DNA of 63,862 bases, counting the filler, from Folioceros fuciformis (lineage: Eukaryota), in NCBI GenBank assembly GCA_049999805.1. It is 8 parts of 8 records of this genome, joined end to end, with 100 filler letters (N's around TTAATTAATTAA, not from the genome) between each part and the next. Parts side by side here need not be neighbours in the genome. Positions count along the whole stretch, not along the records: positions 31,558 to 45,547 come from JBNGIO010003246.1; 7 more parts are not named here. One strand, 5' to 3'. The position numbers and the translations under genes are program-made. The notes under the pieces are model-generated. The model saw only the letters and a program-made list of their open reading frames with translations. It was not told the DNA's origin and made no database searches. This document shows, piece by piece, positions 21,348 to 60,522 of the stretch. Each line of letters opens with the position of its first letter. Positions within the stretch are counted from its first letter, which is position 1.

Positions 21348-23767
21348 CTAGGCAAGACTAGTAGCCTCTGGCTACTAGTCTTGCCTTAAATCCATCACCG
21401 TTACGTTTGATTTTGAATACCCAGTTGCTACCAATTATTTTTCTCCCTTCGGATGGTTTGACGAATTCCCATGTAGAGTTCTTAACTAGGGAGTCATACT
21501 CAGAGTCCATTGCAGCTTTCCATAAATCCTTCTCATGAGAGGAAAGAGCTTGTTTCAAGGTTAAAGGCTCTTCAGGATCAACTGTAGCTTTGTAAATACC
21601 TTGATGAAAATGGGAGAAAGGTGAGGAGGGATCATCAAAGGTGGTAAGGTATCCTAAAGGCGGTTCCTTCCATCCTGTAGGTCCAAAGACAGCAAGTATG
21701 GTTCGTAGGTTGTACCTTGGTGCAAGTTTCTCGTCTTCGTCGACAATTGGTTTCTCTTCTTCTGTAGATTCTTTAGGAGCTGGTTCATGTAATGGAGGAA
21801 CCCGCTCATCCTCATCTAGATAGTCACACTTGGAAAGTTCATCATCTTGGACATCATGAATATCTTCAAGGTGTTGAGTAATTTTCATATTTGGGTCTAG
21901 AGGTGTGGGTCGTCTTGGAGAAGGTGGCTCCTGCTCCTCTTGCAGTATAGGTTCAACCATAGGAGAGGAAGGAGTGTAATGTAGGCTAATAAATATGTCA
22001 TCATCGAAGGATGAGGATTGATTATTGTCATCAGGGACGAACACAGGAGATTTGGAGTCCACTGGAGATAAGATGGGAGACTCATGAAAAGTAACAGTAC
22101 AAGCGCATATAAGTTTCTTGGTAGCTGGATCAAATATTTTGTATCCTTTGATACCTTTTGTATAGCTAATAAAAGTATATTTGGCAGCCTTATCATCCAA
22201 CTTCTTCCACTGTGCTTTAGGAATATAAACATATGCTGTACAACCAAAGACCCGAAGGTGGTCGATAGAAGGCTTTCGGCCAATGAATGCTTCATAAGGT
22301 GTCATACCTTTAACTGTTGAGGTTGGAAGTCTATTTATGAGATATGTTGCTGTTATCATTGCTTCAGCCCAATATGGTTTAGTTAACCTAGCTTGAGAGA
22401 GCAAGCAACCTATGATCTCTTGAAGGCGTAGGTTCTTATTCTCTGCTACACCATTTTGCTGAGGTGTATATACCACTGTAAGTTGTTGAGCTATACCTTA
22501 AGCTTGACAAAAATCAGTAAAGGTGTTTGATGTAAACTCGCCTTCATTATCGGAACAGAGGGTCCTGAGCTTCTTATCTATAAGTCTCTCCGCACACATC
22601 ATGTAATCCTTTAAGTATTGAAAAGCTTCACTTTTGTGCTTAAGAATATATGTTGTGGTAAAGCGGGAGAAATCATCAATAAAAGTTAGGAAATATTTGC
22701 AACCGCTAAACGATGGTGCAGAAACTAGGCCGCAAATGTCAGTGTGAACTAACTCAAGGGCTGCCTTGGCCCGCTGTGGAGAGTTATTTTGAAAGGGTGC
22801 TTGATGTCCTTTAATTATGACACAAGCTTCACACCAGAATAGAGGTTCTATCGAAGTAAGGGAAGGATTCTTGTAGAGATTTCCCTTAGACATTTGAATG
22901 AGTTTTTGGCTATTAGGGTGTCCTAATCTACAATGCCAAAGTACAATGATATTGAAGGTTACAGAATTTTGGGAAGCTACGTGTACCCTATCATGTGAGG
23001 GTCCCACTAGGGCAGACAGTTTATATAACCCGTCCTCTAAAGTGCCTGTGCATATGTTGAGAGACTCACCTGGAGAATAAGTGATGAGACAACTATTTGC
23101 ATTTAAAATGACTTGCACACTATGTTCTGAACATAAGCTAGCGGTTGACATTACACATGGATAGTACATGGAGGACATGAGAGAGGGAGAGAACTTGGCC
23201 TGAAGTACATTTGAGAGCGATTGAACCTACACCAGAAATGGGAAGGTTATGGTCATCACCGAGTAGGATAGTCTGGTGCCCGATTACTGGCGAATAGGAC
23301 TCAAAAGAGTTTCTATTGTGACAGATGTGTGACGTAGCTCCACTGTCTAAGTACGAATTTGGATTTGTTGACTTTGAGGATGCCAAACATACAGTGAGAG
23401 CTGAAGGTGTCATGAAAAATTGTCTTTTCACAGCAAAATTTGCTCCACGTGAGGCCTCCTTTCTAGGCTCACCATTCTTCTTCTTCCTACAATCCTTCTC
23501 CATGTGATTTAGAATTCTGCACCAACTGCATAGAACACCACTCTTGTTACCTTTTGTAGGTGTAGAAGGAGATACGGTATCACCAATAGAATCATGTTGT
23601 CTTGGTGTGGTAGAGTGTTGGGAGGTGCCTCTGCCGCGACCATGGCCATGACCTCGACCCCTTCCTCTACCTCTTCCTGTGAACATCACCTGCTGTCGGC
23701 TGGGACGGTAATCCTATTGCCTACTTGACTCCTCCTGAATTAATGCTCCAATTAACTCAGTCACACT
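21348..23767 (-). pseudogene. copia gag C-terminus, protease, integrase and RT start; interrupted at both ends by other elements
   Basis: CSWCRILNHMEKDC; YLDSGATSHIC; LWHCRLGHP; ELVHTDICG; YTPQQNGVAE; WVFKIKRNGDGFKARLVARGY. Confidence 0.93.
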
Positions 23768-31557: not shown

Positions 31558-34500
31558 CCTGCAGCGATCACCGCTGAACTGAGAGAGCTCTGGGAGGGTT
31601 GGATCGGGGGGTTTGGGTTTGCTGTATCGTGCATTTCGTGTCACCTTCAGCGATCACCCCTGAACTGAGAGATGCCCGTGAAAAAGTGAAATCGCGAATG
31701 ATATGAAATGAACAGTCGGGTGAAATAGAGGCGTCAAGGTTTCGGAGCTGTTTTTTCTTGGACCATGTAGGATGTCCGTTGTGGGATTTTCCTTTGAACA
31801 ACAATCTATTCGTCTCATGCGCCACAGCGGCCATGTGTGGTGTGTTAAGAAAGAATTCTGACACCTCTCCTCTGTCCTCTGTGGTATGCCATATGTTCCT
31901 CGGTTCCCTGTTGCCCATCTCTTTCCTTCTCGATGTCTTCATCTCAGTTGATAGAAAACCCTTAGGAGGATACTCCTGTAGACCTGTAGTAAAAAAGCCG
32001 AAGACCGCTGTTTGGTGGTGTGGTGGAGATCGAAATACTGTAGTAAATCAAGCGCATCAGTTCCAGACACGGCGTCGGATGACATGTCTTCTGACGTTAC
32101 GGAACACGGCCTCTCCCATGCCTGCGACTCCCTTATTTGGAATGCTTGGCATGTTGCTTTGCTATCACTACAGGGTGACACTGTACGGAACCGCCGTGCT
32201 GTCACGTACGAGAGGTGATGGTGAGGGATAGGTGAGGGGCTGGCGGGTGAGGTGACTGTTGCTTGTCGGCTGTGTTGGAAGGGTGGGGATTATTCCTGTA
32301 GCGGATTTTTTGTTTGCCACCTTGTCAGTAGCAAAGGATAGCATTTGGATTAAGGATGCCGCAACTGGTGGCAATTTTTGCAAAGCAAAATGAGCAAGAA
32401 GGCAGACGGGAGGTCAGAGCCGGTGTGGTTCTCGTCTTCGAGAGAGTAGAGATCGTTGAACCAGATTAGAATGCTTTGATGCTGCCTCAGGTTTTGCTAG
32501 GATGAGACTCTCAATTTGGGGTCAGGGTTTGTGTCTGCTGCGTTGACTGTAATGTCCCAGGCTCCCGGGGAGGAGTGTTGTTCCAATTTTATTTCCGGGT
32601 GCTGCGGAGCTTGGAGAATGCTGCTCTGATTGTTTACAACTTTCTCAGTTGAAGAGTGTGAGTACTAGCTGTGGTTGAGGTGGGAGCAGCACTTGCGGAT
32701 GACATCAAATGTGCCTCAACAATCTCTGCAGAGTGGTGTTTCCCGTCATCTTTTATATCTTGGCAACAACAGTCCTCAGTGACAGTACTGCCTACACAGG
32801 AGGTGGCAGCAGCAAGTGCAGAAGAAAGCAGGAATATGAAGAGCTTGGTGGCGATTTTCATACGTCGTACATCAGATTTGACGAAGACTCTCATGGTGTT
32901 TAATGGTCAGTCCCGAGCCTGGAGAAATTGAACGAGTTTTGTCGAATATCACTTGGCTCCAAGTGGTAGAGCCAAACGTTGAATACTAGGAAGATTACGA
33001 AATGGACTAAGAAGATGACCGTTAGGAGAGTTGACCTTATTGTCGAGGGGCTTGTCTCTGCTGATAAAATGCTTTTCGTGATGATGGATGGTGGGCATGG
33101 GGGACTTACCTGCTTGAGTCGCATGCATCTCAGATCTTCCATCGTGTGTGGACTTCTTCGTCACATGGTGAGTCATCAGTTGAGGAGGCAGCCATATGAA
33201 GCAGAGACATGACAAGGATTCCGTGTCTGGCCCATGGCCAAACCACAGAGACTCCTCCTCCAGACGAATCTGGGGTCACGAGGGAGGGAGGAAGAAATGC
33301 TTGTCCATGTGGAGGTACAACTGACTGTCTACCCTTTCCATGGATTACTTAGCTTTCGTCGCTATATCAAGCCTCTTTGTTGTCGACGCATTTCAGAAGT
33401 AGTTTGTTGTCAACACATTTCAGATGTAGTCTGTTGTCCAGGTGTCATCTTAATCCACCCTGCTCTGATGGTTGAAGTTGTCATCATACTCAGTCCTCCC
33501 AACGTCCTCAACTCTTGCCCTCACTCCTCTATACCAACTGAAACACGATGGTCCTGGTGTGAAGCAGCCAAAGAAACGCACGGGCAGATGAAGCTGGTGG
33601 AAACCTTGCAAAATGACACTAAGGCTCTGCCGGATCTAGCAGATGTACTTGCCTCTCTCCCCTGGCCTCCATGCTTGAGCAAAGTAGTTTTCCTTTAGGC
33701 TCAGCACCAAGCAGGGTGACGCATTGTCTGCAGTTATCATCTGTGACCCTCTAATGGCAGAAACTGTTGTAACAAGGGGCGTTGGCTTCCACGACGTGTA
33801 GCAGGAAGCACAGGTGAAGCGTCCACCCCCCGATTGACAGGCCCCCATCGATTACCATGCAAAAAAACGATGTGTGTCAGGTTCCATATTTACTGTACCC
33901 AGTAGGGCATGGAGGCAGCACACTTGGGCAGACGTAGCGGCAGTCAAGGACTGCAAAATCTTTTTGTTAACGGGCTGCAGGCATTTTCATTTATGATGTT
34001 GTAACGTGCCTCAAGTCTGCAGCTACGCTGCGCTGCGGCCCAGCCCAGCTTTTGACACGCCTTGCCTTCGTGTGCAGCTGGAAAGATGGAAAGAAGGCTC
34101 CGTGCGTTTGGTGCAGGGATGGCAGGAGTGTGTAGGGCAACTGGATAGTACTGATGAGGAACGACCTCCGCCGCTTGTGACTTGTGATGCGGAGCAAAGC
34201 CGTGGTTGGAACCAGTCCAAGACCAGTGGGCTGCAAGTGTTTCTTTCGCGTGCATGTGTTTCGTACTGCGCAAGTCCAGATCACCCGGGGAGGAGAGATT
34301 TATAAACCTACATACACAACTCGACGACGAGTTGTCAGATGTGGGGACGATGTCTCGGCCGATTGCGCTGTGGGGTTTGACTGCCCGCACTAACGGCTCT
34401 CTCGCTGTAACAACGTCAGTGGTAACGTTGAATATGCAGTGCGTACTGTTAACAGTCACTGATGAGAGAAGCTGCTAGGCGGCCCGCAAAACCAGCTGCA

Positions 34501-35061
34501 CAGGTCTCGTGTCCAACTCCCAGCACACTTTTCCTTGCTAAGTCTAGCCGGCTGCCGGAGATTGAGCAGCATTGCTTGCCAGCCTTTCATCGGTCTACGT
34601 TTATTTGAATTGGCGGCTTTCGTGCTCTGCGGATGCTCTTCCCCGTCCCGTCGCGGCCCCACGCAATTCGAGCTCGAAGGGCTTCCCTTTGAGCGGCGGG
34701 GTGTGCAGGGCGCCGTGATTAAATCTCTTTGTGGGCTGTGAATTGCAGGCCAGTTTTGTGCTTGAATTTGGGTGTGGCTCATTCTGGAATGGTGAGTTGC
34801 TGAGGTCGGGTCGGGACCAGGAGCCGGAGCTGGTGCCGGTGTTGGCTGGAGGTGTGAAGTGTGTGTGACCTGGATGGCCTGGAGCTGCTGTTGCGGAGCT
34901 GTGGGAATATTGGGCAGGGCCCATGTGTGCGTGAGGCAGGCGAGCAGGGAAGGTAGCTGGTGCGCTTTGGGATCAGGACGGAGTTTAGGCTACAGTAGCA
35001 ATGTGCCCCCGGGGCAGGTGAGAGGGAGCTCGAAAATTAGTTTGGGGTTGTGGGTTTTGTG

Positions 35062-36252
35062 ATGCGGTCTCTTTTCTTCTCGCAATTCTTCAGGTCCAAG
35101 TCGGAGATGGTGCGCCATGAAGGAGGGGCTTTTGACGAGACGAAGGACTCTTTTGAGGAAGGGAGGGCCGGAGAGATGGACCTGGTGCACAGGCTTGGGC
35201 ACTCGCTTGCTGAGAATGGGGTGGGTGAGCAGGGCGCCACTAGGGGCAGAGAAGGGGAAGCTGGTGGTGATGACGAGAGGGATGGCAGTAATGGGATTGG
35301 AGGCGGGAATCCGCAGTCGACGGCCGTTGCCGGGGTTTTGAATAAGAGCAAGGGGAAAGGAGTAGAGGAGGGCTACCATTCTGATGCTGATTCTGGTGGA
35401 CAGGTGAATGAACAGGTCCACGTTCAGTTTAGTGGGATCAATAGCAATTACTTCCCGAGCAGGCAGGGCGAGCTGGAGAAAGGGAAGAAGGTTGTGGAGA
35501 TAGAGGAGGATGAAAGAGATATGGAGTCTTCAGGAAGCAAGGCTCTCATGGCTGTCGTTGCGAGCAAGAGTGATTTGTCAGTGGTCTCCGGTTCAATGTT
35601 GAGCCAGTTCTTAGAGAAGTTGTCTCCAAGAACCTCCAGAAGTCAGTCCATGCGTTTTGCTCCGCATGCTTCGCAGGGACAGAATGAGAAGTTCACCAAC
35701 CCTGAGAAGATTCCACCCTTGGATATCTGCACGAAGGAGTTCCAGGAAATCTATCCCAAGTATTCGGAAACCACTGACATTGACAAGCTAAGGAAAGAAC
35801 ACTATGCCCATTTGCAAGATTCTGGTCACGTTTGTCTTGACTATTGCGGGTACGGGTTGTTTTCGCATTTCCAGCAAGTGCAAAATAAATCCCTGTCATC
35901 CTTCGGGCTGGCCTACATCTCAGCAAATTTGGCAACCCATGCTCTGTATGGGGCTGCAGATGCCCAAAGTGCGGAGGGATGTATCAGAAAGCGAATCATG
36001 CAGTATCTGAACATTTCCGAGGCAGAGTACAGCATGGTGTTCACGGCAAGCAGGGGATCGGCCTTCAAGTTGTTGGCAGAGTCCTACCCTTTTCATGTTA
36101 GTGGCAGGTTGTTGACAGTCTATGATCATGACAGCGAAAGTGTAAAGTGGATGGTAGAGAGCGCTAGGCAGAGGGGGGCCAAAGTTATGAGCGCTCTGTT
36201 CAAGTGGCCGTCCTTGCGTGTATGTGCTGTCACCCTCAAGAAGCAGATCAAG
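35062..36252 (+). CDS. PLP-dependent transferase (aminotransferase class V fold), molybdenum cofactor sulfurase-like plant family, exon 1
   Basis: VCLDYCGYGLFS, YSMVFTASRGSAFKLLAESYPF, LLTVYDHDSESV; GT donor at 36253, phase 0. The start ATG 35062 is the first in frame; upstream exons are not excluded. Confidence 0.9.
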
Positions 36253-36576
36253 GTAATCAGAGGGCATGCAACAAAGCATGGGTCAAGTTAGAACCGAGCA
36301 ACAGGGGACTGCTCTGTGCTTTGTCTGATGTGGGTTTAACATGACTCACATCTTGTATTGTTTTGTGTCCAGGGTAGGTGGCGAAATGTTCCACACAAAC
36401 GGAGAGGTCCGGAGAGGTGGAACAAGCTTTTTCTCTCCCTATTCAGAAGATTGACTGGCATCAGGAAGGGCAAAGAGGCCCAACCTCAGGTATGTGCTCG
36501 CTAGTGTTTGCTGCTCACTGCAGATGGTTGATTCATTGATCTATTTGTTGCTTGCTGATCAGATCATGTCTTGCAG

Positions 36577-39216
36577 GAGCATGGCAGGAAGAAGGATGTC
36601 TCTAAAGGTCTCTTTGTCTTTCCAATGCAATCACGCATCACCGGTTCCAAACTTGCTTACCAATGGATGTCATATGCCCAGCAGAACAAGTGGCATGTGC
36701 TCCTTGACGCTTCCGCCCTTGGTCCGAAGGACATGTGCTCTCTTGGACTTTCTCTCTTCCGCCCGGATTTCATTGTAGCATCATTCTTCAAGGTGTTTGG
36801 GTCTGATCCCACTGGCTTCGGCTGTCTCTTCATAAAAAATTCTGCGATGCCTTACTTGCAAACGTCCTATCGGGCAAGAGGGGTGGGCATGGTACGGATT
36901 GTCCCGTATGGAAGCTACCCCTCCCCGGACGTATCTCCCGGCAAAGCCCAACAACAGGAACCTGCACACTCTGATCTAAAAGGAGGCAAGGAGGTCTATG
37001 GGGCTAATGGTCGGGGCGCCAAGCACTTGGCACCTTGCTCGGTACATACAGGAGTGAGTTCTTTCTCTGGTCCTGTACGGGCTGAAAATATGAAACGACC
37101 GTCTGATAGGCCGAGTGGTCTCCTTTCTGAGAATGTGTATGTGGGCTATGCAAAAGCTGCTTACGTTGATGAAAAGAGTGGAAACTCTGAGACCACGTTT
37201 GCATCAGGAAGTCTTTACGCTTCAGGAAGCCTCCCCCCCTCAAGCAGTCTGTATGCCTCTGGTAGTTTCTACCCATCTAGCAGTGCTTTCCCATCTGGAA
37301 GCATATATCCATCTGGTGCCCTCCATACACCTCCGTCCGGTAGTCTGTATTCTAGTACAAGTGACTCAGATAAGTTTCGGAAGGATTCACTGCTGGACCA
37401 ATGGCTGGATGTTGGATTTTCAGGTCCGATGTCACCACATCTGAAGAAAGAAAAATTGAGGCCAAGCTTGTTGCGGGAAACCCGTTTTGCCAGGAGTTCA
37501 GATGACAAGGAGGACAGGAGCAGCCATGACATTCGAGGAGACAACAGTGTACCCAGCAGCAATGATGAACTGCAGAAATCGGTAGGAGAGATGAGCAGAG
37601 GAAGAGGCCAGAGTGATCTCGGTCTGGCAATAAAATCATCCAGCAGGGATGAAGGGGAGATCTTGAAAAGCAGTTCTGGCAATGTTCTTCGAGAGCATGA
37701 GATGTTGGAGTGGACCAGCAGGCATCACCTGGTTGCAAAAGGAAGCAGCTCTCTGAGACCTTCTCAAAAGGAAGTAGAAAGTTCTGATGGTGCAGGTATT
37801 TTTTCAGGTAATCCGCATGAAACGTCCAGTACGACACGGATAAATGAAGTTCTTCAACGGGAGAACAGCTGTGCGAGTTCAGCGCACGACGTTGATGGAA
37901 GTTCTGGGCGTGATAGTTTTACAACTCCCCCAGGGGAGCTACTGGATTTGCACAAAGAGTTTGGCCGGGCAGACATTGATGTTGACGGTGATAACACAGG
38001 AGATGAGAAAGCAAGTGATCAAAGTTTTGGAAGCAGTGTCAGGGTTTTCAATGATCACGAGAGGGACCCCAGGTCCCGTGGCATCTCCTCTGAGGGTACA
38101 GTTTCTTATGATTCACAAGTGCGGAGCACTGTTGGAGCTGAAGAGGGTAGGTCTGCATCAGCTGTTGTGAGCAGTGCCCATATTGGGATGATGGGTTCTG
38201 CGCAACCAGGGTCTGCAGCTAGGCTGAACAACCTGTCCTCAAGAACTGAGAGTAATTCAAGTCTTGGTACTGGAGACACGGGGGATATGAATAGTGAAGT
38301 GGACAAGAGACTAGCAGTTCCAGTTGCGAGACGTGATCCTCTGCCCAGTTTCAAAGAGAACGCTGTGAGTAGAGAGTCTGAAAAGGCGTATGAGATGCTA
38401 GGTTGCAGAGATCGTGAAGCACAAAGAAGACTGCTGGTTATCAAGAGAGAGATCGCTGACATGGATGGAGATGGCACAGATACTTTTGACTTGAGCAGTA
38501 GAGGTTCCTCCTTGAGGCTTGGGAGCCGGGGGGATTCATTGTACAATATTCATGAAGTTTCCTCTGGAGCAACACAATCTGAGGGAAGTGATTACACTGA
38601 TGGTGTCGATGAAGAAGCAGAGGCTGCAGATGATGCTGGCATACCCCAGCCAGCTGTGTTCTGTCAAAGCCTAGACCATGCTGATTTCATGGGTCTGAAT
38701 AGAACAAATATGAGGCAAAGATATCTAAGTTCTTGGCTCATTCACTCTCTCATGAAGTTGGAGCACCCAGGTGGCCGTCACTTAGTGCATATCTATGGCC
38801 CCAATGGTAGAGCTGACAGAGGGCAATCTGTTGCTTTCAACGTGTTTGACTGGAATGGAAACCTGCTGCAGCCAGGGCTAGTGCAGCGGCTTGCAGATCG
38901 CAGCAACATTGCACTTGGACTGGGTTCACTCTGCAACATAGACCTCCCAGACGATGTGAATTTGGTGCCAGGGCTTGTCATTAAGAAAACAGGCATCAAG
39001 CAGGTGGAAACAAGTAGACCTCGAATTAGAGTAGTGACAGCATCTTTGGGCTTTGTTTCGAACTTTGAGGATGTGTACAGATTATGGCATTTTGTAGCCA
39101 AGTTCTTGGACGTCGACTTCCTCTTCAGAGAGGTCTGGTGGTACCACAGCTTGAATCAAGAGACTGTTGATCTAGGTGACGGAAGTGTGGTGCAGGACAA
39201 GTCTCAAACAGGATAA
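36577..39216 (+). CDS. PLP-dependent transferase, molybdenum cofactor sulfurase-like plant family, exon 2 (spliced product ~1276 aa)
   Basis: TTGCAG acceptor ends at 36576. GLFVFPMQSRITG, WHVLLDASALGPKDM, PDFIVASFFKVFG (PLP lysine), LDHAD..GLN, RGQSVAFNVFDW, VVTASLGFVSNFEDVY. Stop TAA 39214-39216. No MOSC domain. Confidence 0.92.
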   Translation, partial: EHGRKKDVSKGLFVFPMQSRITGSKLAYQWMSYAQQNKWHVLLDASALGPKDMCSLGLSLFRPDFIVASFFKVFGSDPTGFGCLFIKNSAMPYLQTSYRARGVGMVRIVPYGSYPSPDVSPGKAQQQEPAHSDLKGGKEVYGANGRGAKHLAPCSVHTGVSSFSGPVRAENMKRPSDRPSGLLSENVYVGYAKAAYVDEKSGNSETTFASGSLYASGSLPPSSSLYASGSFYPSSSAFPSGSIYPSGALHTPPSGSLYSSTSDSDKFRKDSLLDQWLDVGFSGPMSPHLKKEKLRPSLLRETRFARSSDDKEDRSSHDIRGDNSVPSSNDELQKSVGEMSRGRGQSDLGLAIKSSSRDEGEILKSSSGNVLREHEMLEWTSRHHLVAKGSSSLRPSQKEVESSDGAGIFSGNPHETSSTTRINEVLQRENSCASSAHDVDGSSGRDSFTTPPGELLDLHKEFGRADIDVDGDNTGDEKASDQSFGSSVRVFNDHERDPRSRGISSEGTVSYDSQVRSTVGAEEGRSASAVVSSAHIGMMGSAQPGSAARLNNLSSRTESNSSLGTGDTGDMNSEVDKRLAVPVARRDPLPSFKENAVSRESEKAYEMLGCRDREAQRRLLVIKREIADMDGDGTDTFDLSSRGSSLRLGSRGDSLYNIHEVSSGATQSEGSDYTDGVDEEAEAADDAGIPQPAVFCQSLDHADFMGLNRTNMRQRYLSSWLIHSLMKLEHPGGRHLVHIYGPNGRADRGQSVAFNVFDWNGNLLQPGLVQRLADRSNIALGLGSLCNIDLPDDVNLVPGLVIKKTGIKQVETSRPRIRVVTASLGFVSNFEDVYRLWHFVAKFLDVDFLFREVWWYHSLNQETVDLGDGSVVQDKSQTG
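37198..37355 (+). repeat. Coding 18-bp (hexapeptide) degenerate tandem repeat
   Basis: FASGSLYASGSLPPSSSLYASGSFYPSSSAFPSGSIYPSGALHTPPSGSLYSS. Confidence 0.8.
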
Positions 39217-40295
39217 GCTCAAGCTATTTCTAAACGTTTCTTCTGAGTCCAAACAGCAGGTTGTTATTGCTTCTTGGACAATTGGAGGTCACGAGTTACC
39301 ACGTGCGTGAAGCCACTATTAGTGGTGTTTCAAGCTCAGTGTTATTGTTGGTGACGATGCCGCCCATCGCCCGTGCATACAGCTGTATTTTGGCAGGGGT
39401 CACATCTGAAAGGTAGCAGGGATGGTAGCTGCTTTTTCATGTTTGCTGTTGACCAATCCGTGAATGGTTTGCTGAGCGATCTAGTGCTTTTCTCAGATGT
39501 CTGTACCAGCTGCTGGAGGCGTGAACAATTTCCAGCCATCCGGAGGAGAAAGACTGCACTGCACTGCTTCCTTATCATTTGACCTTCCGAGAGGAAGACG
39601 TCATTGCAATCTTGTCTCCATAGCAAATCCAAGCCATATCACCTTGTGGTGGGTTGTTGTAATTTATCCAGTCGGCTCTTGTATCTGCGATTGTTTAGCC
39701 ACAACTCAGTAAGTGGCTGAGATCCTTGGTTACTGAAACAGAAAATTGGCTTCTGTTGACAAACTTCAATGTGAGCTCGTTTTACAGACGTTATGAGTAC
39801 TTTTGCGTGGCAAACTTCAATTTTCGTGCGAAGTGTCAGCAAACTGTGTACTTAGGTGGTCCATATTGAGCAGTCATCGCCAACGCATGAAGCAGGCTCG
39901 GGCATCCACACGATGTGCGTGGTGGTATGGGTTGTAATTTCTACGGTTCGTTGAACGATGGTTGAAATAATCGGTGAGTGCTTCCCTCCGCTCGCGTTGC
40001 AGTGTAGAAATTTATGTGATTCTTTCGAGGAAGGTAAGGTGTGTGAGACTGATGGGATGGAGTTCGTAAGCTGTTTCCTTCGGGAGGGCACATGAAGGTG
40101 TTCGAGTTTAACAGGTTGGGATCCGCTTTCAGAATTTCGCTTCAGCAAGGGGACAGAGGGCTTGGTGATGGACGTCGCATACTAGTGTGAATGAGTGCAG
40201 CTTGGCCTGGCAGCAATCCCGCCCTGCGAATCGTGGACAGCAATAGATGCGACAGAACATTTGCTTGCTACCATGCGAAAATCGTGTTCACTAGA

Positions 40296-41829
40296 CTAGC
40301 ACAAGCATTTCAGGCGGAAAGAGCATTTCAGACGGAAAGATAGACGTTTAGTCGCCCAGCGAAACAAGGACTTCACCTTCTTCCTAGGCTTAGTCTTTGG
40401 AGCACGCCCACCTGTATTCCTGCCGACCAAATCGAACCCTAACCTGACCTCATACAAGAGTGCTTTGGCACGTGGGGGCGTCAAAGTAGGAGGCCACTCT
40501 CCTCCTTCACAGGGCGCGTGGTCAAGAGAAACTCGTGGAGCAAGGGCAATTTGTGGAACATGAGCAGGTTCTATGTTTCTCAAATAAACATTATCATAAC
40601 TGTTCCACCCTCCCTTTCGGTGCTGTTCCCTCCACACCCGTGACATAATTTCCTGCACGTCTGGATGTCCATGCCTCTGTCTCCACACCCCCACCAAAGC
40701 CCTAACGAACGGACTTCCATGAATACCAGACTCGGGCTTGGGGATTGTGAAGGGGATAATGGACTGATCCGAGACATCCCGGAAGTCTGTTAACCAATCG
40801 AGAAGCTCACCATTGAACACACCTGGAGGGACGGAGCATCCCTGGTCATCAGGCTTCTCCTGTCCCCGGTACTTGAATAGCCTCCGACAGCCGGCCAAGA
40901 TGAAGACCTTAGGTTCGCCTGACAGAAGCGGACTTAACAGGAGATGTCGCACTAAATCTTTGTACACGTAAACGGGATATTCATGTTCATCCAAGATAAA
41001 TACTCTACCATGGATATCGACGCACACATCTGCTATCACAAAACACAGGAAGGAGTCACATCCTACCAGAGCATCTGCGTAAGAGTATTTACCCAAATTC
41101 CGCATCACAGTCCTCAGCTCATCAGCTGATCTGTTCTGTATGACATGCACGTCAAACCCAATAACGTGTGCTAGAAATTCCAGCATCGCCCAGTCTGCAG
41201 ATACCCCGGGTCTCCTCTTCTCCATGCTTATCAGAACAGCCAAGCCCGTCCTGCGAACCCTCTTAAGACCTCTCGTGGCTACACTCAGGTCACTATTGTC
41301 ATCCGAATACATGCTGCTCGGACATCTCACGCCCATGGAGGGCAACAGAAGCAGCCTATGCAGGTCCTCATTCTACACCACGATTTGTTCAACACGCTGC
41401 TGCACCCTTCCCATCGTATCCCAAACGTCTTTACCGTGGTGCAGCACCTGATCCATTTTGCTGTTTATGGCTATCACAACTTTCCCAGTCTGCTTCACCT
41501 CAGCCCGGATCTCCCGAACGATCGTCATCTCGTGAACAAGCCCCTGGTTCATTTCCGACACCTGGACCTCCATCCTCTCAAACTCTTCCACAAACTGCTT
41601 CGAAACTGCCTCCTCCATGTCCCTTCCGTCCCCTGCCGTGCGTTTGTCCAGCAGCTCCCGGACCTCCTTCACCAGGATCTGATTGTCTTCTGTCTACTTC
41701 AATATCTTCTCCACCAGGTACCCTTGAGCTGCAACCGAGTCTTGCACCGCAGCCTGCTTTGCAAGGCTTGCCCATGTGGCCTCTGTGGATGCCAGCTCCT
41801 TGAGATCGTGTGTCAAGGTCAGAATGAAA
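40296..41829 (-). pseudogene. Coiled-coil + caspase-like (peptidase C14 p20/p10) protein, disrupted
   Basis: One reading frame with TAG stops at 41694-41696 and 41373-41375. Caspase motifs RTGLAVLI, RPGVSAD, GFDVHVIQN, DSFLCFVI, PLLSGEPKVFILAGCR and GSPFVRAL...DVQEIMSRV. The 5' end is lost at the MULE boundary. Confidence 0.8.
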
Positions 41830-42547
41830 GGTGAAACCAAAAAACAGTGAATAAATATGAGTGGAGAGAGAGTACCGAATATGAGGGATAAAATATTGTC
41901 CCAAAAGTAAAAGTAAGTGTCCCGATCGAGACACCAAGCAAGCGGAGGAGTGCTAGAGCGGGAAGCAAGCGGAGTGCAGAACGGGAACCAGGAATCATAT
42001 CGTGCCTTAAGACCGAAGCGGTCACAATACCAGGAACCATAATGTGCCTTACTACCGAAGCGGTCACAAGAACTATGTGCCTTACGTCCAAAGCGGGCAC
42101 ATTGTGACGTCCAAAATGTACTGTCGTGCCCATGTATCTTGCGGCCTGCGTCTAAATCTCCGAAGCAAGAAATGCATCGGACGGTCTGACGTCCTATGGC
42201 ATGGCATGCCCCATGTCCCATGCCATAGGCTATGCCACGTCCTATGGCATGGCATGGCATGCCCCATGTCCTGGTCTCTCTCTATCACCACGTATAGCCC
42301 GCTTGCATACAACCTAGGTTTCGCCATAAATAAACGGTGGCATAACTTTGAGTATAACCCGCTTGCTGGGTTGAACCGTGCCGTGTGTACAACCATGTGC
42401 ATGTTACAAACTGAATTGAAAACCGTGCGCGGGATCATTCCCTACAAACATGAATAGAGCAAAGCAGGAAGCTCTTGAACCTCATTTTCAATCTTTGCTT
42501 ACCCTAACACAAACACAAGCAAAGAGTGGTGAAGGAGCTTGCACACC

Positions 42548-45110
42548 ATGGAGTGTCCGTTGTTCATTCAATCGCCGACACTTGGGCAGTTCAGTGCAGA
42601 TGATCTAAGTTGACAAGTGGTGAAGGACATGAAGGTTGTTTATATTCCTTGGAGTAGAGTGGATGACTATGTTTCTGGAGAAGGCTTGAGATGCGCTGCA
42701 AGCTTCTACCAAAAGGATTCAAAGAGTGAACATTCCTTGCCTATACCAATTGTGCCATCTCTGGAGATTGCAAGCACATACATTAGGTATGATTGATCTC
42801 CCCCTCCAAGTTGTTGCACTCCATAGCTTTTTCTAACCACATGTTTGTAGGTTACTGTGTTTAAGTTTGACAAGGCTTTTTCTTTGCTAGGTTATGTGCC
42901 CACTAAATCTAACATGATGTAGTTACCAATTTGAAGGGTACACATGCCTAATATATATTTTGACTACCTATGGAGATATTGGTGCTCATATGGACCACAA
43001 GATTATAGAGAAGGCACGACACCGAAGAATGTACGTATGAAAACTGGATGTATGGCAAATTTTGTTGTGAAGCAGTTGCTTTTATTTCCAGATGTGGCTC
43101 AAATCCTCCTTCGTGAAAGAGCGCATGTAGATCGCGAATGTGAGGTTTGTCATGGCCCACAATATGTGGGTCATCCTAAAATGTCTAGAGCTCCTTGGCT
43201 TTTGAAGGAGAAGAAGGATTGGGTGAAACATTGTCTTTATTGCAAGGTTTTTGTGTCGGAGATTATGCCTCGACATATTACAGTTGTGTACGAGAAGATG
43301 GTGCACTATTCTGGACATGGACCTGGAGATGACATTCGAGACGACTACCTGCAACGCAAGGATGTGTTGAACATGAAACGGCAGGTGGAAGTAGATGAGT
43401 GGAAACTCCATGTAGATGATGCAAAGTCAACCCAAATGTGGTTGAAAGTGAATGCTGACCTTATCTTCCATTGGTCAGAGCTGGGTGAACCATTTGTTTT
43501 AGGATTGCAAATTCCTTTCATGCGACAAATGTTGGTTAAGCATGGGATGAATAGTGTTTTAGCCATAGATGTCACATTTGGTATGAACAAGTATCGGTAC
43601 CACTTATTCACTGTGATGGTTTTTGATCAACACCTAAATGGTATTCCAGTTGCTTGGGCACTAACACATGAGGCTACTATCATTTCTTCAGTATCATGGT
43701 TGAAGTTGCTGCAACAAGTACCTCTCAACACATGTGCAACATGGGTTCCTAGTTGTTTTTTAGTTGATGATTGTTTGGCAGAGATAGGTGCATTGAAACA
43801 GGTATGGGAGGCACATATATATGTTGTGTTGTGCTTATGGCATGTTAGGAAGGCATGATAACGAAACCTTTTGAGGAAGGTGAAATGTAGTATTGCAAGG
43901 AAGAAAATTTGGGCTGCTCTTGCAGATATTATGTATGTGAAAGGACATGGCACAAATGAGAATACTGTTGCATGGGGTAGTGTATTATTAGAGTTCTTCT
44001 ATAAGGAGTGGCATGGAAGCCAACTAGCATTTGTTGAGTACTTCAAGAAACAGTGGGGCAAATCTATAGGTATTTTGCTTCTATGTTGCAGTGTCCTTTT
44101 CGTGATTTAAGGGCTGTGTTCTTGGACGTACATTGGGTGAGGAGTATAATGGTTTTTTTTTTTTTTGGCAGATATGTGGTTGAAGAATCGCAGGTTGTAT
44201 CCTCACTCCGGATAGGATACCACGTCCGCATTGGAGGCCTTTCATCGCTTTTTGAAGAAAAGAGTGTCTTTCACTAAAGCAGTGCTACCGGGAAGGCGTA
44301 TGGATTGACTTTTCCATCAACTAGTGAATGAGGTAGGACGTCATTATTGGTACCTTGATTTCACTAAGGCTAGTGGTTACAGGCCAAATTCGAAGCTAGA
44401 GAAGGTATATGAACATGTTTTATTTGCAGCAAGAACCATTCCAGACACAGTTGATACATTTCCGTCAGACGATGGGTTTACTTTGGCATATTGCATGTCC
44501 TTTGAAGATAGTGAGAAAATATATGTAATTTAGGCAGCACACTCACCGTGGGCATTTTGTAGTTGTGCAATGGGGCAAAAAGGTTTTCTATGCAAACATG
44601 TTGTGAAGGTGCAACAAGTTTGTGGTGTATTTGAACATACTTCTCATGTTTTGTGCCTTACATGGTGTACCAATGGATATCATGCTGGGGTAGAGAATGG
44701 AGGTAGTGCATTACCTGACCTCAATGTTGTTGTTGAGACGAATGTGACAGAAATGCATAACCTACAGGAAGTAATGCCGCAAAGCACGACTTGTAGTGTG
44801 ACACCTAGTTTGAGGCAACCCAAAAACTTAGAAGAGTTGAAGTTGGAAAGACGTCGAGACTTGGATGCAATATGTATGAGTATTCCAAGCATGGTCGAAG
44901 CACAACCTGATATTTTGTTTAAGGTTTGTGCAATAATGGAACAAGCACAACATCGTTTTAGGGAGGTTGTGGCTTAGAAGGATGAGGCCTCAAGTAGAAT
45001 GACAAGGATAGAGGAGTTGGTCCCAAACAATGGAACAAACAGGCTAGTACGATTTAGAGGCATTGAAGAACGGTCACGGCCAAGGAAGAAAAAAGGCACT
45101 TGGCAATTAT
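42548..45110 (+). pseudogene. MULE transposase with SWIM zinc finger (At1g60560/At4g13970-like family), intron-containing, with stops
   Basis: IPWSRVDDYV, YWCSYGPQDY, GCMANFVVK, AIDVTFGMNKYRYHLFTVMVFDQHLNGIPVAW, FLVDD, LCLWHVRKA*, SWIM CSC......CKH. Likely introns ~42787-42975 and 44070-44171. Confidence 0.88.
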
Positions 45111-45324
45111 AGAGGATACTACTATGTCATGATCCTTGTAGTGGTGTTATTACAATAGTAGTTGGGGGAGGAGGTTATTCAAGTTATTTGGTGTTTATGT
45201 TTTGTTTGTTGGATGTAAGTGCTTGGTTAGTGTGTAGTCGGGGTACTTTGATGTTTAATGGGGTTGTGATGGTGTTCAACAAATTTGGTGGGTATTAGGT
45301 TAATTTGCTGTTCAATGAGGATGT

Positions 45325-45547
45325 GATGGTGTTCAGCTGATGTAGTGTTAAGGCAAGCTCATTTTGTGTTCAGCTAGGGTGATGTAGTGTTTAGGTAGGC
45401 TGATCTTGTGTTCAGGTAGGTTGTTTTTGTGTGAAGGCAAGCTGATTTTGTGTTCAGCCAGGGTGATGTAGTGTTTAGACAAGTTGATGTAGTGTTCAGC
45501 CAAGGTAATTTGGTGTTCAGGCAAGCTGATTTGGTGTTTAGTAAGGC
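45325..45547. repeat. ~16-bp degenerate tandem array (subterminal repeat)
   Basis: Recurring TGATGTAGTGTT(T/C)AG / AAGCTGATTTTGTGTTCAG units. Confidence 0.8.
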
Positions 45548-45647
45548 NNNNNNNNNNNNNNNNNNNNNNNNNNNNNNNNNNNNNNNNNNNNTTAATTAAT
45601 TAANNNNNNNNNNNNNNNNNNNNNNNNNNNNNNNNNNNNNNNNNNNN
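45548..45647. other. Artificial contig spacer
   Basis: 44 N + TTAATTAATTAA + 44 N. Confidence 0.99.
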
Positions 45648-46751
45648 GGCGACCATCCAGCAAGGAAGAGGCGGCGTCCGCAGACCTTTGAAGACCAGAC
45701 ATCCTCTGAAGTCTCAGGATAGTCTAAGAGGTGGTAGATCCTTGTGGTGGTAGGGCCAGGAGCTCATTGGTGGCAGGTTGTGCTAGAAGTCTAAATAAGT
45801 GGCTAGTGACAGCCGGATAGGCTATTAAAATAATATTTCTCAAGTTAGAGAGAGGTGAAGTCAGAGAGAGAGAGAGGCTCCTATAAGATCAGGTGAGCCT
45901 GTAGGAAGAAGGAGTCATTCACTTTTGGGAGTCAGTCTATCTCTTTGTGAGCTCTTGGAGGTCCTCTCTTCTTGAGCTCTTGTGGTCTGTCCCTGCTTGG
46001 TCTAGGACCTGCAGTGTGTTGCCGGCTGTACAGTGTCTGGTAGGATCGCAGGCAGCGTGTTGCCGGCTGTACAGTGTCTGGTAGGATCGCGGGCAGCGTG
46101 TTGCCGGTTGTATAGTGTCTGGTAGGATCACAAGGTGTAATGACCAGGGTGAAGGGGCTTGCCCCTAGCTCTTGATTGTAAAGGGTGTGTCTTCCTCTCG
46201 ACCTGTCCACTCTTGTTCCTTGCTTGGTCAAGTGTTGTAGGCCGGCCATGTCTCATGGCGTCTGGTAAGGTTGTGGGGAGGAGATACCCAAGAGGGGAGT
46301 GTGTTCCCTTCGTCCTTTTGTTTGGAGTTAGTCTAGTGACTCTTGCCGGGTAGGAGGAGTCCGTAGGGAAGTGTAGAAGGTAGTGGTGTCGTTGCTGGTT
46401 GCTGGTAGTTGTTGGTGTTGGTGCTGGAGTAAGAGAGTGAGTGAAGTGAGTGAGGGAAGTCACAGATCTGAGAGGTTAGGGTCGTTGTAGTGACAAGAGT
46501 GAGTTTGTGGGCACCGAGAGAGGTGCAGCTGACCGCCGGACAGCGAGGCCTGTCCTACGCCTGATCGGAGCTGGAGGGGAGCCCTCGAATCCATCATCAA
46601 GTCGATCAAGTCCGACCCTCCATCCACAGCAGCAAGGAACCCCATCGCTCCTTCGTGGGAACGAAACCCAATGTCTCAACGACAGTGGGATAAGTGTGGC
46701 CACTAAAGGTGGAACCCGTCGGCAATCAGTGCCCGGGGTTTTGCCTCCACA
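45648..46751 (+). mobile_element. Terminal 1.1 kb of a TGTGGAG/CTCCACA-family LTR, inserted in a copia protease
   Basis: Ends CTCCACA at 46751, exactly where similarity to the paralog at 11270 stops. Shares CCTTCGTGGGAACGAAACCC..CAACGACA..GTGTGGCC with 21260-21347 and the reverse complement of 14278-14365. CTATAAG at 45881. Confidence 0.8.
46011..46129. repeat. 41-bp tandem repeat x3
   Basis: GCAG(C/T)GTGTTGCCGGCTGTACAGTGTCTGGTAGGATC starting at 46011, 46052 and 46093. Confidence 0.95.
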
Positions 46752-48627
46752 CCTAACATCCTTCAGTACGAATGAAGATCCGTTGTCGAACTTCAGCTGC
46801 ACATCACCAACGCCTGCAATCTCGCATGCGTAGTTATTTCCAAGCCGAACACATCCTTTTCTAGTAGCATCATAAGTGCTAAACCACTCCCTATGCGGAG
46901 TAACATGGAAAGATACTCCAGAGTCAATTATCCAATTAGAGAATAAGTGACTCTCCACGGCTGTCAGTTGTGCAGAATTGAAGGAAGAAGAGATAAGAAC
47001 ATCTCCATCGTCAACAGAATTCACGTCGTCAGGCTTGCTACTCAAGCTTGCCTTGTTGTCACTTTGCTTCTTCTCCTTTCCTTTGTCCTTCTTGAACTTC
47101 TCGCAGTCCTTCCTGATGTGACCCTTCTTATGACAATGGTAACACTCAACATTGTTACGACTACGAGACTTACTACGGGAAAGACTTCGCTCCTTGTACT
47201 TCCCCTTTGAAGTGGACCTTCCTCTCACCATGAGGGCATTGGAACCTTTGGAAGGTTCCATATTCTTCCTGTTCACCTCCTCTGTTAACAGGCTACCTTC
47301 TACATTTACAATAGTAAGACCACTGGCAGGAGCGGAATTACTCAGAGCTGTACAAAAGGTGTCCCAGCTCTCTGGTAATGTGACCAACAGAAACATAGCT
47401 CTCACGAAATCTAGAAACGAGATACCTTGAGATGAGAGTTGGCTGAAAATGGTATTGAACTCGTTCAGATGATCGGACATCCTCGTCCCTTCCTTCATCT
47501 TTAAGTCCACCAGCTGTTTCAACCAATATACCTGAGAAACCGCACTTTGCTTCTCATACAGGTCACACAACTTCTGCTATAGCTCGTAGCTTGTGGTCTT
47601 GTCTTTCACGTTGAAGTAGACCGACTTCAAGAATGTTACCATGACGCTAGACCTAGCAAGCTCATCTAGATCCTGCCACTCATCCTGAGTCATGCTAACA
47701 GGTTTCACTCCTAGTAACTTTATCGGCTTGATTTGCTTCTTCTGCACTAGAACGTTATACACTTGTTCTTTCCAGAACGGGAAAATAGTACCATCTAACT
47801 TCTCGATATTGAACATGACGTTTTCTGAGGACGCCATGTTTCAAAATCGATGCAAATCAAGCAAAATACTAGTTAGAAATTGTCGAACTGTAATGTAGAT
47901 TTTGTTACCCTCGTTTTGATTCTTCTGTCCACAATTTAGGATGACACGTCGAGCCTAAATCCTCCAATGCGATCTGATTCTGCCTTGTGGCTGGGATCCC
48001 AACTAGCTCTCGTTTTCGCCCTCAACCTTGATGCTCCGACACTTGCAATCCAGTACCCGGCGTTAGCGACTCCGACATACGATGATACCCCGTAGCCTCC
48101 CTCGTTTGTGGGACTGGCATCCGTCGGCCACGACGAGCACCTATCGGCGCCGCTGCCGTTCGCGGACCAAGACTGACAATTGCCGGCCGGCCCGTACCAT
48201 GGCAACGCCCCGCGCCACGCTGTTCGGCTCCGGAGCCAGCGGTCGGGCCAACATCCCCGCACCCGCCGCCCGCGCACCCCGAGCTAGCGCCCCGCCCCGA
48301 CCGCGGGCCAGAATCCCCTGCTGGCGGGCTCGCGCCCCAGCTGGGTGCCCCTAGCCGGGCTGCGTGACCCCCGCACCCTAGGCACCCCTAGCGCCCCGGC
48401 TGCCTGGCGCACGGCCCTAGCCGGTCGCCTGACGACCCGCCCACGTAGAACTGGCGGTACCCTCCTGGTGCCGCCGCGGCACCGTGTAGGCTTGCTATGC
48501 CTGCACCCCATGGGTAGGAAGTGCCCTGCGGCCGGGATCGTCCTCCTTCCAGCGCTCCACGATCTGGGGTCTGGTCCATGGATTAAGGCCGCAATGGTTT
48601 TCGCAACTCGATCTCTTTCCACTCACT
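46752..48627 (-). mobile_element. copia fragment: GC-rich leader, gag (from 47837) and protease; same family as 10158-13272
   Basis: Closely matches 11270-12420. CYHCHKKGHIRKDC; WIIDSGVSFHVT; TAG at 47577-47579. Confidence 0.92.
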
Positions 48628-58866: not shown

Positions 58867-60324
58867 TCACTTGACGAGGCCCAGGTTTATGATGCCCCAA
58901 GAATGGGAAGGCCACTGCTTCTCTCTGGCATTCTGCAGCAACACGCGGGCCCAGGCAATCCAGCCTTCCCAGGTCATCTTCTTGTCCCAGTTGGTGCCCC
59001 ATTCCAGGAGCAGCTGCAGCCCCTGCTTTGCCTCCCTTTCTGCATCTTCATGCCTGCCTGTGGATAGGTGTATTTGAGCCAGCACCAGGCGTGGCTCGGC
59101 TACCCACGGGTTGGATAGGGTGGCCTCCTTCAGCAAGGGTTCTGCCAGCTCCAGCACATTCTTCTCGGCTGGGAAGGAAATGGCCTTGTGGTACAGGTCC
59201 CTGGCACGAATTTGGTCAGATGGCGGGAGGATGACGGAGCACGTGTTGAACACCGGAGGTAGTACCAATCGGATGTCGTCAACCAAGCTTCTTGCTGTCG
59301 CTGTTCCCCTAGGCGTGCCAACGGGATTTAGAGCAGCTTCCAGCTTTTCCTCTCGGACCAGTATGTTGAGCAGGACGCCCATTCGAGATACAGAGCTCAA
59401 CCAGAGCCCGGGCTTGCCATCTCCAGGCCACAGGGCTGTCCACTCGTTTCCCTTAAATTCCAACTTCCCGTCCTCATTCCCAAAGAGCTCGTCCTGCCAG
59501 CCGTAGAACTGGTCTATAAAATCTGCCATGGTGAGAGTGAGGAAGATGGCAATCAGGTGCCTGCTGACGTGCAAATCCTCGCCCGTGCGAATATGCTTCA
59601 CCGCAATGCCCTCCGATGGCAAGAAAGGTGTTCTGGTTCCTCCAGCAAGTTCAGTGGCAACCGTGTTCGCCTGCTCGAACTTCGCACTTATGTCACCGTT
59701 TTCTTGGCTATTACTGGCCGTCTTCACCTTGACGTTGCCCTCCTCGTCGAAGTAGGGCTCTGTGTCCTTCAAGGCATCTCGCAGCTGCTCATCGGTGTAG
59801 TTGAACAGGAGGCAGTTGAAGATGAGCTCCTGGCGGGGCACAATACAGAACAAATGAATCAGCTCCTCCGCAACGTCACCCACCAAGTCGCGGACTCTAT
59901 CCCTCTCCACGTTGGACTTGAAGATGGCCAGATTCACGTAGGAATTGGAGTAGGCAGAGTGGAAGAGGCCGCATCGTGCCACAGCATCCGGCACGTTCCA
60001 AAGCTTGAGAATTTGGTAGACATGCAGTAGGTGCTCGAAGAAAGTGCCGTGCTTGTGCCAGCACTCCGAAGCCCCCACGAATTGCAGCACAGAGAGCAGG
60101 TGTGGCAGGGCTGGATCAATTTCGGAGTGGGATGACCGAATGAAGAGGCGTGCTAAATCCAGCCTCCAGTTGCCGGTGCTGCCTTTGGTGTCACACATGG
60201 TGGAATCCGAGCACCTCCCGCCCTCCTTGGCTCGGGCTACGTGGGCATCTGCAGAGCCAGTACACGGCGTCAGACCAAGGTTCACAGCAAGCCAGCTTCC
60301 TCCCGACCTTGTGAAAGGGCGCAT
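58867..60324 (-). CDS. Conserved plant DUF6817-domain protein with C-terminal TPR-like region
   Basis: Uninterrupted ORF. GASECWHKHGTFFEHL, CGLFHSAYSNSYVNLAIF, TMADF.DQ..GWQD.LF, LWPGDGKPGLW, LEWGT.WDK.M.WEGWIAW, WGIINLGLVK. The start is uncertain (first in-frame ATG at 60324). Confidence 0.88.
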   Translation of the reverse strand: MRPFTRSGGSWLAVNLGLTPCTGSADAHVARAKEGGRCSDSTMCDTKGSTGNWRLDLARLFIRSSHSEIDPALPHLLSVLQFVGASECWHKHGTFFEHLLHVYQILKLWNVPDAVARCGLFHSAYSNSYVNLAIFKSNVERDRVRDLVGDVAEELIHLFCIVPRQELIFNCLLFNYTDEQLRDALKDTEPYFDEEGNVKVKTASNSQENGDISAKFEQANTVATELAGGTRTPFLPSEGIAVKHIRTGEDLHVSRHLIAIFLTLTMADFIDQFYGWQDELFGNEDGKLEFKGNEWTALWPGDGKPGLWLSSVSRMGVLLNILVREEKLEAALNPVGTPRGTATARSLVDDIRLVLPPVFNTCSVILPPSDQIRARDLYHKAISFPAEKNVLELAEPLLKEATLSNPWVAEPRLVLAQIHLSTGRHEDAEREAKQGLQLLLEWGTNWDKKMTWEGWIAWARVLLQNAREKQWPSHSWGIINLGLVK

Positions 60325-60522
60325 GCGAGAATTTGGTGACTCACATTCAGAAGCAGCCTTGTCACTGTCAGTTGCCCAGCAAGCCAAAAAAGTACTCAAC
60401 CTATATTATATGTGTGTACACACGGGCTGGCCAGTTCAGCGGCCTCAAATCCCCAATCCCTCCTGGTGGCAGTATGTCCGCCAGACTCTTTGTTGCGAAG
60501 AGAGAAAAGCAGTCGCCGGCTG

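Follow-up and report, generated by a model that had tools for sequence, protein, structure and literature searches.

A probably disabled caspase-type protein encoded in Folioceros fuciformis, and its relatives in land plants

The stretch of Folioceros fuciformis DNA analysed here (hereafter the window) comprises 63,862 nucleotides, filler included, joined from eight parts of NCBI GenBank assembly GCA_049999805.1. Within the part that comes from JBNGIO010003246.1 (positions 31,558 to 45,547), the minus strand carries a long open reading frame (ORF) whose predicted product, P0001, contains a caspase-like domain. Residues 34-239 of P0001 match the Pfam family Peptidase_C14 (E 1.3e-9; 38.6 bits, cut-off 21.4; profile positions 2-209 of 233), a significant outcome of the profile comparison proposed with the original prediction, which had read the ORF as an animal-type caspase-like domain in a land-plant genome. 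The frame runs uninterrupted for 358 codons between one stop and the next, a length expected by chance ~0.001 times in the window, given its stop frequency of 0.0425 per codon; together, the E value and the improbably long frame place the match beyond chance. Other scans added little: NCBIfam returned one match only, far under its cut-off (15 versus 140 bits), PADLOC models matched neither P0001 nor its relative P0004, and an Rfam scan of the window found nothing.

The features of the locus, in positions of the window, are:

40296..41345, minus strand: ORF P0001, 349 codons plus stop, from the ORF listing; its first ATG, at 41336-41334, is the fourth codon

40629..41246, minus strand: Peptidase_C14 (caspase) domain, with p20-like and p10-like parts, from Pfam, the structural model and structural Z scores

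41211..41213, minus strand: Arg45 of the R-x-G motif, kept, at the place of the first S1 arginine in caspases (alignments)

41025..41033, minus strand: Ala105-Asp106-Val107 in place of A-H-G in the family and S-H-G in caspases, with Asp for the catalytic His and Val for Gly (alignments)

40881..40934, minus strand: SPLLSGEPKVFILAGCRR, with Cys153 kept (40889-40887), Ala151 at the Gln/Asn position and Arg155 for the closing Gly (alignments)

40635..40718, minus strand: p10-like GSPFVRALVGVW...DVQEIMSRV; the conserved S-x-R just upstream, with the second S1 arginine, is a gap in P0001 (alignments)

40524..40556, minus strand: PQIALAPRVSL, aligned with the C-terminal Q...S-L strand of the family (alignments; model confidence is low here)

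41373..41690, minus strand: open stretch of 105 codons in the same frame, coiled-coil-like, ending at a TAG (41375-41373); its GC is strongly periodic, 0.67/0.25/0.71 across the three codon positions

Read along P0001, the motifs fall in the order RTGLAVLI (residues 32-39), RPGVSAD (45-51), LAHVIGFDVHVIQNRS (58-73), DSFLCFVI (97-104) and SPLLSGEPKVFILAGCRR (138-155), followed by the p10-like GSPFVRALVGVW (210-221) and DVQEIMSRV (229-237). The six strings quoted in the original prediction are all present, in the order and at the places it gave, and the cysteine codon that it put at 40889-40887 encodes Cys153. Its broader claim, that these strings reproduce the p20 signature of animal caspases, holds in part: every quoted string is there, but the match to 'DxFxCxILSHG' ends before SHG, where P0001 has ADV (105-107). 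Towards the C-terminus, the invariant Trp of the family to which P0001 is assigned below pairs with W284 in alignment A6 and with W330, within KSLFRWATKRL at 40341-40373, in alignment A1. An intron was considered as the source of the extra residues that precede the C-terminus and was rejected: by eye, the sole GT...AG pair there spans ~37 nucleotides. Also set aside was a likeness to P0008 in an N-terminal 'MG(V/I)RxPSS', because in BLASTP this segment of P0008 aligns elsewhere.

A diverged plant metacaspase or paracaspase would fall into the same Pfam family and share the common fold (Z 10-16.9 to the model described below), and we consider such an identity for P0001 extremely improbable. A phmmer search of PDB sequences with P0001 gave 34 matches at E<=10, among them 32 caspases (the best being caspase-2 p18, E 0.002), two unrelated proteins (a catalase and a cupin), and no metacaspase or paracaspase. 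When P0001 was combined with seven relatives in a profile, caspase-6, -8, -7 and -3 were matched at E 1e-32 to 1e-28, in alignments that span p20 and p10 and take in the C-terminal Q...S-L-T-K-x-L-(F/W) strand; the best 60 profile matches listed are all caspases, with no metacaspase or paracaspase. All 30 matches of P0001 in the ESM Atlas are Peptidase_C14 clusters, and the best three, at scores of 0.94-0.95, are animal caspase clusters, which serve as a lead only.

Structural comparison points the same way. An AlphaFold2 model of residues 20-285, built from a 21-row alignment, reached a mean predicted local distance difference test score (pLDDT) of 71.7 and a predicted template modelling score (pTM) of 0.71 (the single sequence of P0001 gave a useless model, pLDDT 32.5), and was compared with 48,161 PDB representatives. 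Its Z scores were 19.2 to caspase-9, 18.9 to Sf-caspase-1 and 18.5 to CED-3 (177-201 residues aligned), 18.3 to Dronc, 18.8 to 4pry (title: caspase-8-specific peptides), 18.6 to 6nry (caspase-4), 18.5 to 4jj7 (caspase-3-specific peptides) and 17.1 to c-FLIP (3h13_A). The paracaspase MALT1 followed at 16.9 and 16.5, the metacaspases AtMC4, AtMC9, Yca1 and TbMCA2 at 15.5, 14.5, 12.2 and 10.1, respectively, and GSU0716 and legumain at 13.9 and 13.0. All eight full caspase-family chains outscore the metacaspases and MALT1, a consistent ranking with small steps between groups. Foldseek placed a caspase in every row listed (best E 1.7e-10), so that the structure prediction and fold search suggested beforehand recover a caspase fold.

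Plant metacaspases are characterized by the motifs L-x-G-C-x-N-D, YSGHG and DACHSG, and by an acidic S1 pocket. At the metacaspase motif sites P0001 reads FVIADV and LAGCRR, which are not metacaspase motifs, and its family keeps both arginines of the caspase S1 pocket. As judged from sequence and model together, the domain is caspase-type (C14A-like) and not metacaspase-type; the earlier choice between the two stands, on the PDB matches, the profile E values and Z scores of 17.1-19.2 against 10.1-15.5.

The nearest relatives of P0001 are proteins from the plant side, not animal ones. HMMER over 1.84 billion representative proteins found nine relatives at E<=1e-3, with no animal caspase among them; the best, P0002, has E 5.4e-15 and 29% identity. 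Because P0001 scores 71 bits to P0002 and 20 bits to the best solved caspase, it lies much nearer to this group than to animal caspases. Two of the nine come from Marchantia: P0005 is M. paleacea KAG6554914 (1113 amino acids), and P0009 is M. polymorpha PTQ31690 (807 amino acids), whose 90% cluster includes Mp_6g00900, Mp_6g00860 and MARPO_0052s0114. UniRef labels the Marchantia relatives 'Caspase family p20 domain-containing protein', and one source has 'protein SERAC1'. A search with P0004 as query gave 13 relatives and added twelve to those already listed. P0001 and its relatives have in common a family-specific ISMEK first strand and a PKVF motif, and P0001 is, by its sequence, a member of a caspase-type family that occurs in land plants; the suggestion of a caspase-like family in this lineage is backed by the members in M. 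polymorpha and M. paleacea.

Members of this family differ in architecture. In the Marchantia relatives the C14 domain (Pfam C14 E 1e-27 and 7e-24) comes after alpha/beta-hydrolase modules, the hydrolase part matching Pfam Abhydrolase_6 and, in P0005, DUF676. Read by eye, P0009 has two hydrolase modules and P0005 has three, with a nucleophile elbow of the form G-x-C-x-G-G or G-H-S-S-G-G, and residues 342-575 of P0009 match the PADLOC model DUF626_VIII (E 2.7e-14). Standalone C14 forms also occur, for example P0002-P0004 (Pfam E 4.5e-39 for P0004), and Pfam detects no CARD or DED prodomain in the seven family members scanned. When 17 family proteins were searched against the window by tblastn, 13 matched, and at 40608-41294 only; the four without a match are hydrolase-only forms, so that by this search the window holds no hydrolase part.

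Searches beyond this group yielded little. A word-based search showed P0001 to be absent from a collection of 15 billion proteins; the same kind of search with alignment A2 returned only P0010, probably through words in the long N-terminus of that protein. Scanning metagenome and prokaryote genome contigs with alignment A4 found nothing, nor did a search of viral contigs and plasmids with P0004. A search of metagenomes with P0003 gave one locus, L001, where positions 974-1609 on the plus strand form a caspase exon (Pfam C14 E 1.3e-42) that reads LSHG, NACQG and GSWY. L001 has Asn at the caspase Gln position, like the plant family, and falls outside that family in the tree.

The likeness of its motifs to those of animal caspases, and the presence of N blocks in the window, could suggest that P0001 derives from an animal or another foreign source, its DNA having been joined to the plant sequence by contamination or mis-assembly. 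We give this explanation next to no weight: P0001 scores far higher to a Marchantia-containing family than to any solved animal caspase and has the ISMEK strand specific to that family; the adjoining gene, the ORF and a Mutator-like element (MULE) are separated by no N; and three runs from two studies with the same organism label contain 68-84% of the sampled words of 38000-43000. Contamination at the level of the family is argued against by the named relatives being Marchantia proteins located on contigs of 0.7-28 Mb.

The residues on which catalysis depends are largely missing from P0001. In caspases, the His-Cys dyad acts with an Asp-binding S1 pocket formed by an Arg after strand 1, the Gln before the catalytic Cys and an Arg in p10; an alignment to caspase-6 pairs the corresponding positions of the family with its R-x-G arginine, H-G, Q-A-C-R-G and S-H-R. 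Counted in the 21-row alignment, the 19 family rows besides P0001 keep the first S1 Arg in 18, His in 17, the Gly after it in all 19 and Cys in 18; 17 rows have Asn in place of the caspase Gln, and 16 of 18 keep the p10 Arg. At the ten positions R/H/G/N/A/C/R/G/S/R, P0001 instead has R, D, V, A, G, C, R, R and S, the tenth being a gap: Arg45, Asp106, Val107, Ala151, Gly152, Cys153, Arg154 and Arg155, with the p10 Arg falling in the gap. The pentapeptide box accordingly reads A-G-C-R-R in P0001, N-A-C-R-G in the family and Q-A-C-R-G in caspases. The catalytic His is missing: ADV (105-107) takes the place of the (S/A)HG found in the family and in caspases, and the HMMER alignment to caspase-2 likewise leaves P0001 without it. 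P0001 is probably catalytically disabled and would be unable to cleave by the canonical His-Cys mechanism.

Retention of Cys153 and Arg45, together with an H-G pair at 112-113, shortly after the lost site, might still allow an active protease in which Cys153 works with a non-canonical base such as His112 of IHG, six residues downstream. Yet in every alignment His112 sits one residue ahead of a turn Gly that is conserved, off the catalytic position, and the losses extend to the Gly that follows His, to the Gln/Asn position and to the p10 Arg; we regard activity of this kind as very improbable. That P0001 is a dead member of a caspase-type family, borne by a plant, we hold to be very probable. 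Loss of catalytic residues recurs within the family: Tyr replaces the His of P0002 and P0026, where the p10 Arg is also missing, and Gly replaces the Cys of P0010.

Whether the gene is still maintained is a finer question, on which the evidence divides. P0001 is identical to the family at 33 of the 53 columns that are conserved at >=80% (62%; identical or similar at 37 of 53), against ~25% identity overall (21-28% to the family, 22-26% to the Marchantia relatives). Six of its 20 non-identical conserved columns lie at the active site or S1: His, the following Gly, the Asn, the closing Gly, the p10 Arg, and the Arg after the conserved Asp, which has become W52. At 3.9-4.4 changes per column, its end branch exceeds the median in the family tree (0.19-0.23) many times over. 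A frame unbroken over so long a divergence, beside two others that carry 37 and 40 stops over the same 2.1 kb, and with those 33 conserved positions kept, argues for long constraint on P0001, and neutral change on the scale of its branch should have disrupted the frame. For most of its history, P0001 would have evolved as a protein under constraint. In its present form it would act, if at all, through binding instead of cleavage, as the pseudo-caspase c-FLIP does toward caspase-8. We tentatively read the ORF as a still maintained pseudo-enzyme (pseudo-caspase) gene, a reading to which we give slightly less than an even chance.

Several observations weigh against that reading. Upstream of P0001 the frame stays open for ~300 codons (41376-41690 and 41697-42284), broken only by TAG at 41375-41373 and TAA at 41696-41694, which gives the appearance of a longer gene truncated by nonsense changes; over the same 2.1 kb, the P0001 frame (~660 codons) has 5 stops, and the other two frames have 37 and 40. 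Pieces of copia elements and of a MULE surround the ORF. No relative exceeds 30% identity, so that the ratio of nonsynonymous to synonymous substitution rates (dN/dS) is not measurable for P0001, and trees do not fix its place within the family. Moreover, its C-terminal strand, which in caspases forms the dimer interface, is modelled at pLDDT <50.

These points can be assembled into a picture of P0001 as a silent relic, with a decayed active site, an N-terminal part cut off by nonsense changes, and a frame that is open since inactivation was recent. The two in-frame stops in an otherwise open frame, the loss of four active-site or S1 positions, the extremely long branch, the transposon-rich surroundings and the absence of P0001 from the 15-billion-protein collection would all fit, and the 105-codon upstream stretch may be the severed N-terminal part of the gene. 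Against this stand the 358-codon open frame and the excess of identity at family-conserved columns, which speaks for long constraint on the fold; the ATG of P0001, moreover, lies ~29 residues ahead of the first strand, close to the 28 residues of the standalone relative P0006. Neither Pfam families nor members of the caspase-type family match the upstream stretches, which therefore need not belong to the gene; the farther one (41697-42284) is repeat-rich and open in several frames. We consider a relic a substantial possibility, though one clearly on the lesser side of even. A pair of 42-nucleotide direct repeats lies at 41987-42069, upstream of P0001.

The surroundings of the ORF were examined for signs of its host. 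There are no N bases within 31558-45547, and therefore the neighbouring gene, P0001 and the MULE lie on one unbroken stretch; the earlier description of the sequence as gap-free applies to this part and not to the window as a whole, which has 14 blocks of 44 N. These blocks, each of exactly 44 N, lie between 24706 and 62375, paired 12 bases apart (e.g. 45548-45591 and 45604-45647), and look like masking rather than assembly gaps. The adjacent gene, put forward as clearly that of a land plant, is upheld less firmly: the ESM Atlas places its ORF at 36571-39213 closest to Streptophyta clusters (0.92 and 0.87), one of them a 'Molybdenum cofactor sulfurase family protein', which is a lead only, and Pfam gave no match for this ORF or for that at 35050-36288.

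The MULE reported near P0001 is real, with a transposase ORF at 42944-43858, and with copia pieces elsewhere in the window it raises the thought that P0001 is a gene fragment captured by a transposon (a Pack-MULE or a long terminal repeat (LTR) element) rather than a host gene. However, 31558-45547 was found to contain neither inverted repeats nor long direct repeats flanking the ORF, the MULE lies on the opposite strand, 1.6 kb off, and the domain is complete end to end, not a fragment; the chance of such a capture appears slight.

Elsewhere in the window, copia-type LTR retrotransposon ORFs (gag, integrase, RVT_2) form four sets, at 4527-7940, 21358-23689, 46476-47570 and 62696-63862, on both strands and several in pieces. 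A single ORF of 510 amino acids at 58867-60399 (minus strand) matches DUF6817 (E 5.6e-30), with a weak TPR match, and is likely a host gene. A tandem array of 21-nucleotide units (7 overlapping copies) occupies 45241-45537, just before an N block.

Passages of published work describe caspases as restricted to animals (PMC10896300), plants as being without caspases (PMC12521494) and caspases as absent from plants (PMC5982838, PMC10565124); in the view of such papers and reviews, metacaspases are all that plants possess. Our literature search found no paper on caspase-type proteins of land plants, Marchantia included, although the supplements of papers on bryophyte receptors of the nucleotide-binding, leucine-rich repeat type (NLRs) lay outside the search and may list them; none was found that cites Mp6g00900, Mp6g00860, Mapoly0108s0037 or Mapoly0052s0114, and the word 'caspase' was not found in the main text of PMC12890914 and PMC11906373. 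Public databases already label the Marchantia proteins automatically as caspase p20. Bryophyte NLRs that carry N-terminal alpha/beta-hydrolases are described in a passage of PMC11218826, which also attributes hypersensitive response (HR)-like responses in Nicotiana benthamiana to two Marchantia hydrolase domains.

Those relatives of P0001 that are active would be cysteine proteases. Their S1 pocket would be basic, as in caspases, and they would thus probably cut after acidic residues. A wider proposal is that bryophytes (Marchantia and the lineage of P0001) own a genuine family of C14A-like proteases whose His-Cys dyad is intact and whose S1 pocket is basic and directed at Asp/Glu, and that this family acts in immunity or cell death; that its Marchantia members are fused to the kind of alpha/beta-hydrolase module used by bryophyte NLRs as a cell-death domain; and that its dead members (P0001, P0002/P0026 and P0010) serve as c-FLIP-like regulators. 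Taken as a whole, this proposal is speculative, and we think it rather doubtful. If bryophytes do have genuine C14A-like proteases, the statement that plants lack caspases would be overturned, and a family with a conserved dyad and S1 arginines in transformable Marchantia would open to direct test a long-standing question, namely whether caspase-like, Asp-directed proteolysis serves cell death or immunity in any plant. The value of P0001 itself is as a pointer to the family, a sign of its reach beyond Marchantia, and a case of repeated loss of catalysis.

Among known systems, animal caspases (MEROPS C14A; caspase-6, -8, -3, -7 and -9, CED-3, Dronc) resemble P0001 in fold (Z 18-19) and in having p20 followed by p10 in a single chain. 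Caspases and the plant family are collinear through R-x-G...D, F-x-C-x-x-(S/A)-H-G, G-K-P-K-x-F-x-x-x-A-C-R-G, S-x-R...G-(S/T)-x-F and Q...S-x-L-T-K-x-L-(F/W). Unlike caspases, P0001 is without the His, the following Gly, the Gln position and the p10 Arg; it shows 14-20% identity to them in structural alignments, and its host is plant-like. The plant family as a whole departs from caspases in its Asn for Gln, its own ISMEK first strand and the lack of a CARD or DED detectable by Pfam in the members scanned. Caspase-type proteins outside animals are mentioned, in part of Klim et al. 2018 (PMC5982838), for the foraminifer Reticulomyxa and for viruses.

AtMC4 (6w8r), AtMC9 (8a53) and MALT1 (3v4o) have the clan CD fold and the Pfam family in common with P0001, at lower Z scores (15.5, 14.5 and 16.9), and their S1 pocket is acidic, not basic. 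Bacterial pseudo-orthocaspases offer a parallel for repeated loss of catalytic residues within the C14 family, including Tyr for His, according to a passage of PMC6426788. The same replacement is seen in P0002 and P0026 of the plant family; orthocaspases, however, cut after basic residues, stand on the metacaspase side and show no specific sequence relationship to the plant family. The protease-like domain of c-FLIP(L) (3h13_A, Z 17.1) is, like that of P0001, a caspase fold without the full catalytic set. c-FLIP carries DED domains and is without the catalytic Cys, whereas P0001 keeps the Cys and is without the His. The Marchantia proteins PTQ31690/Mp6g00900/Mp6g00860 and KAG6554914 have the same caspase-type domain as P0001 but differ from it in the hydrolase modules placed in front, and in keeping His, Cys and both Arg.

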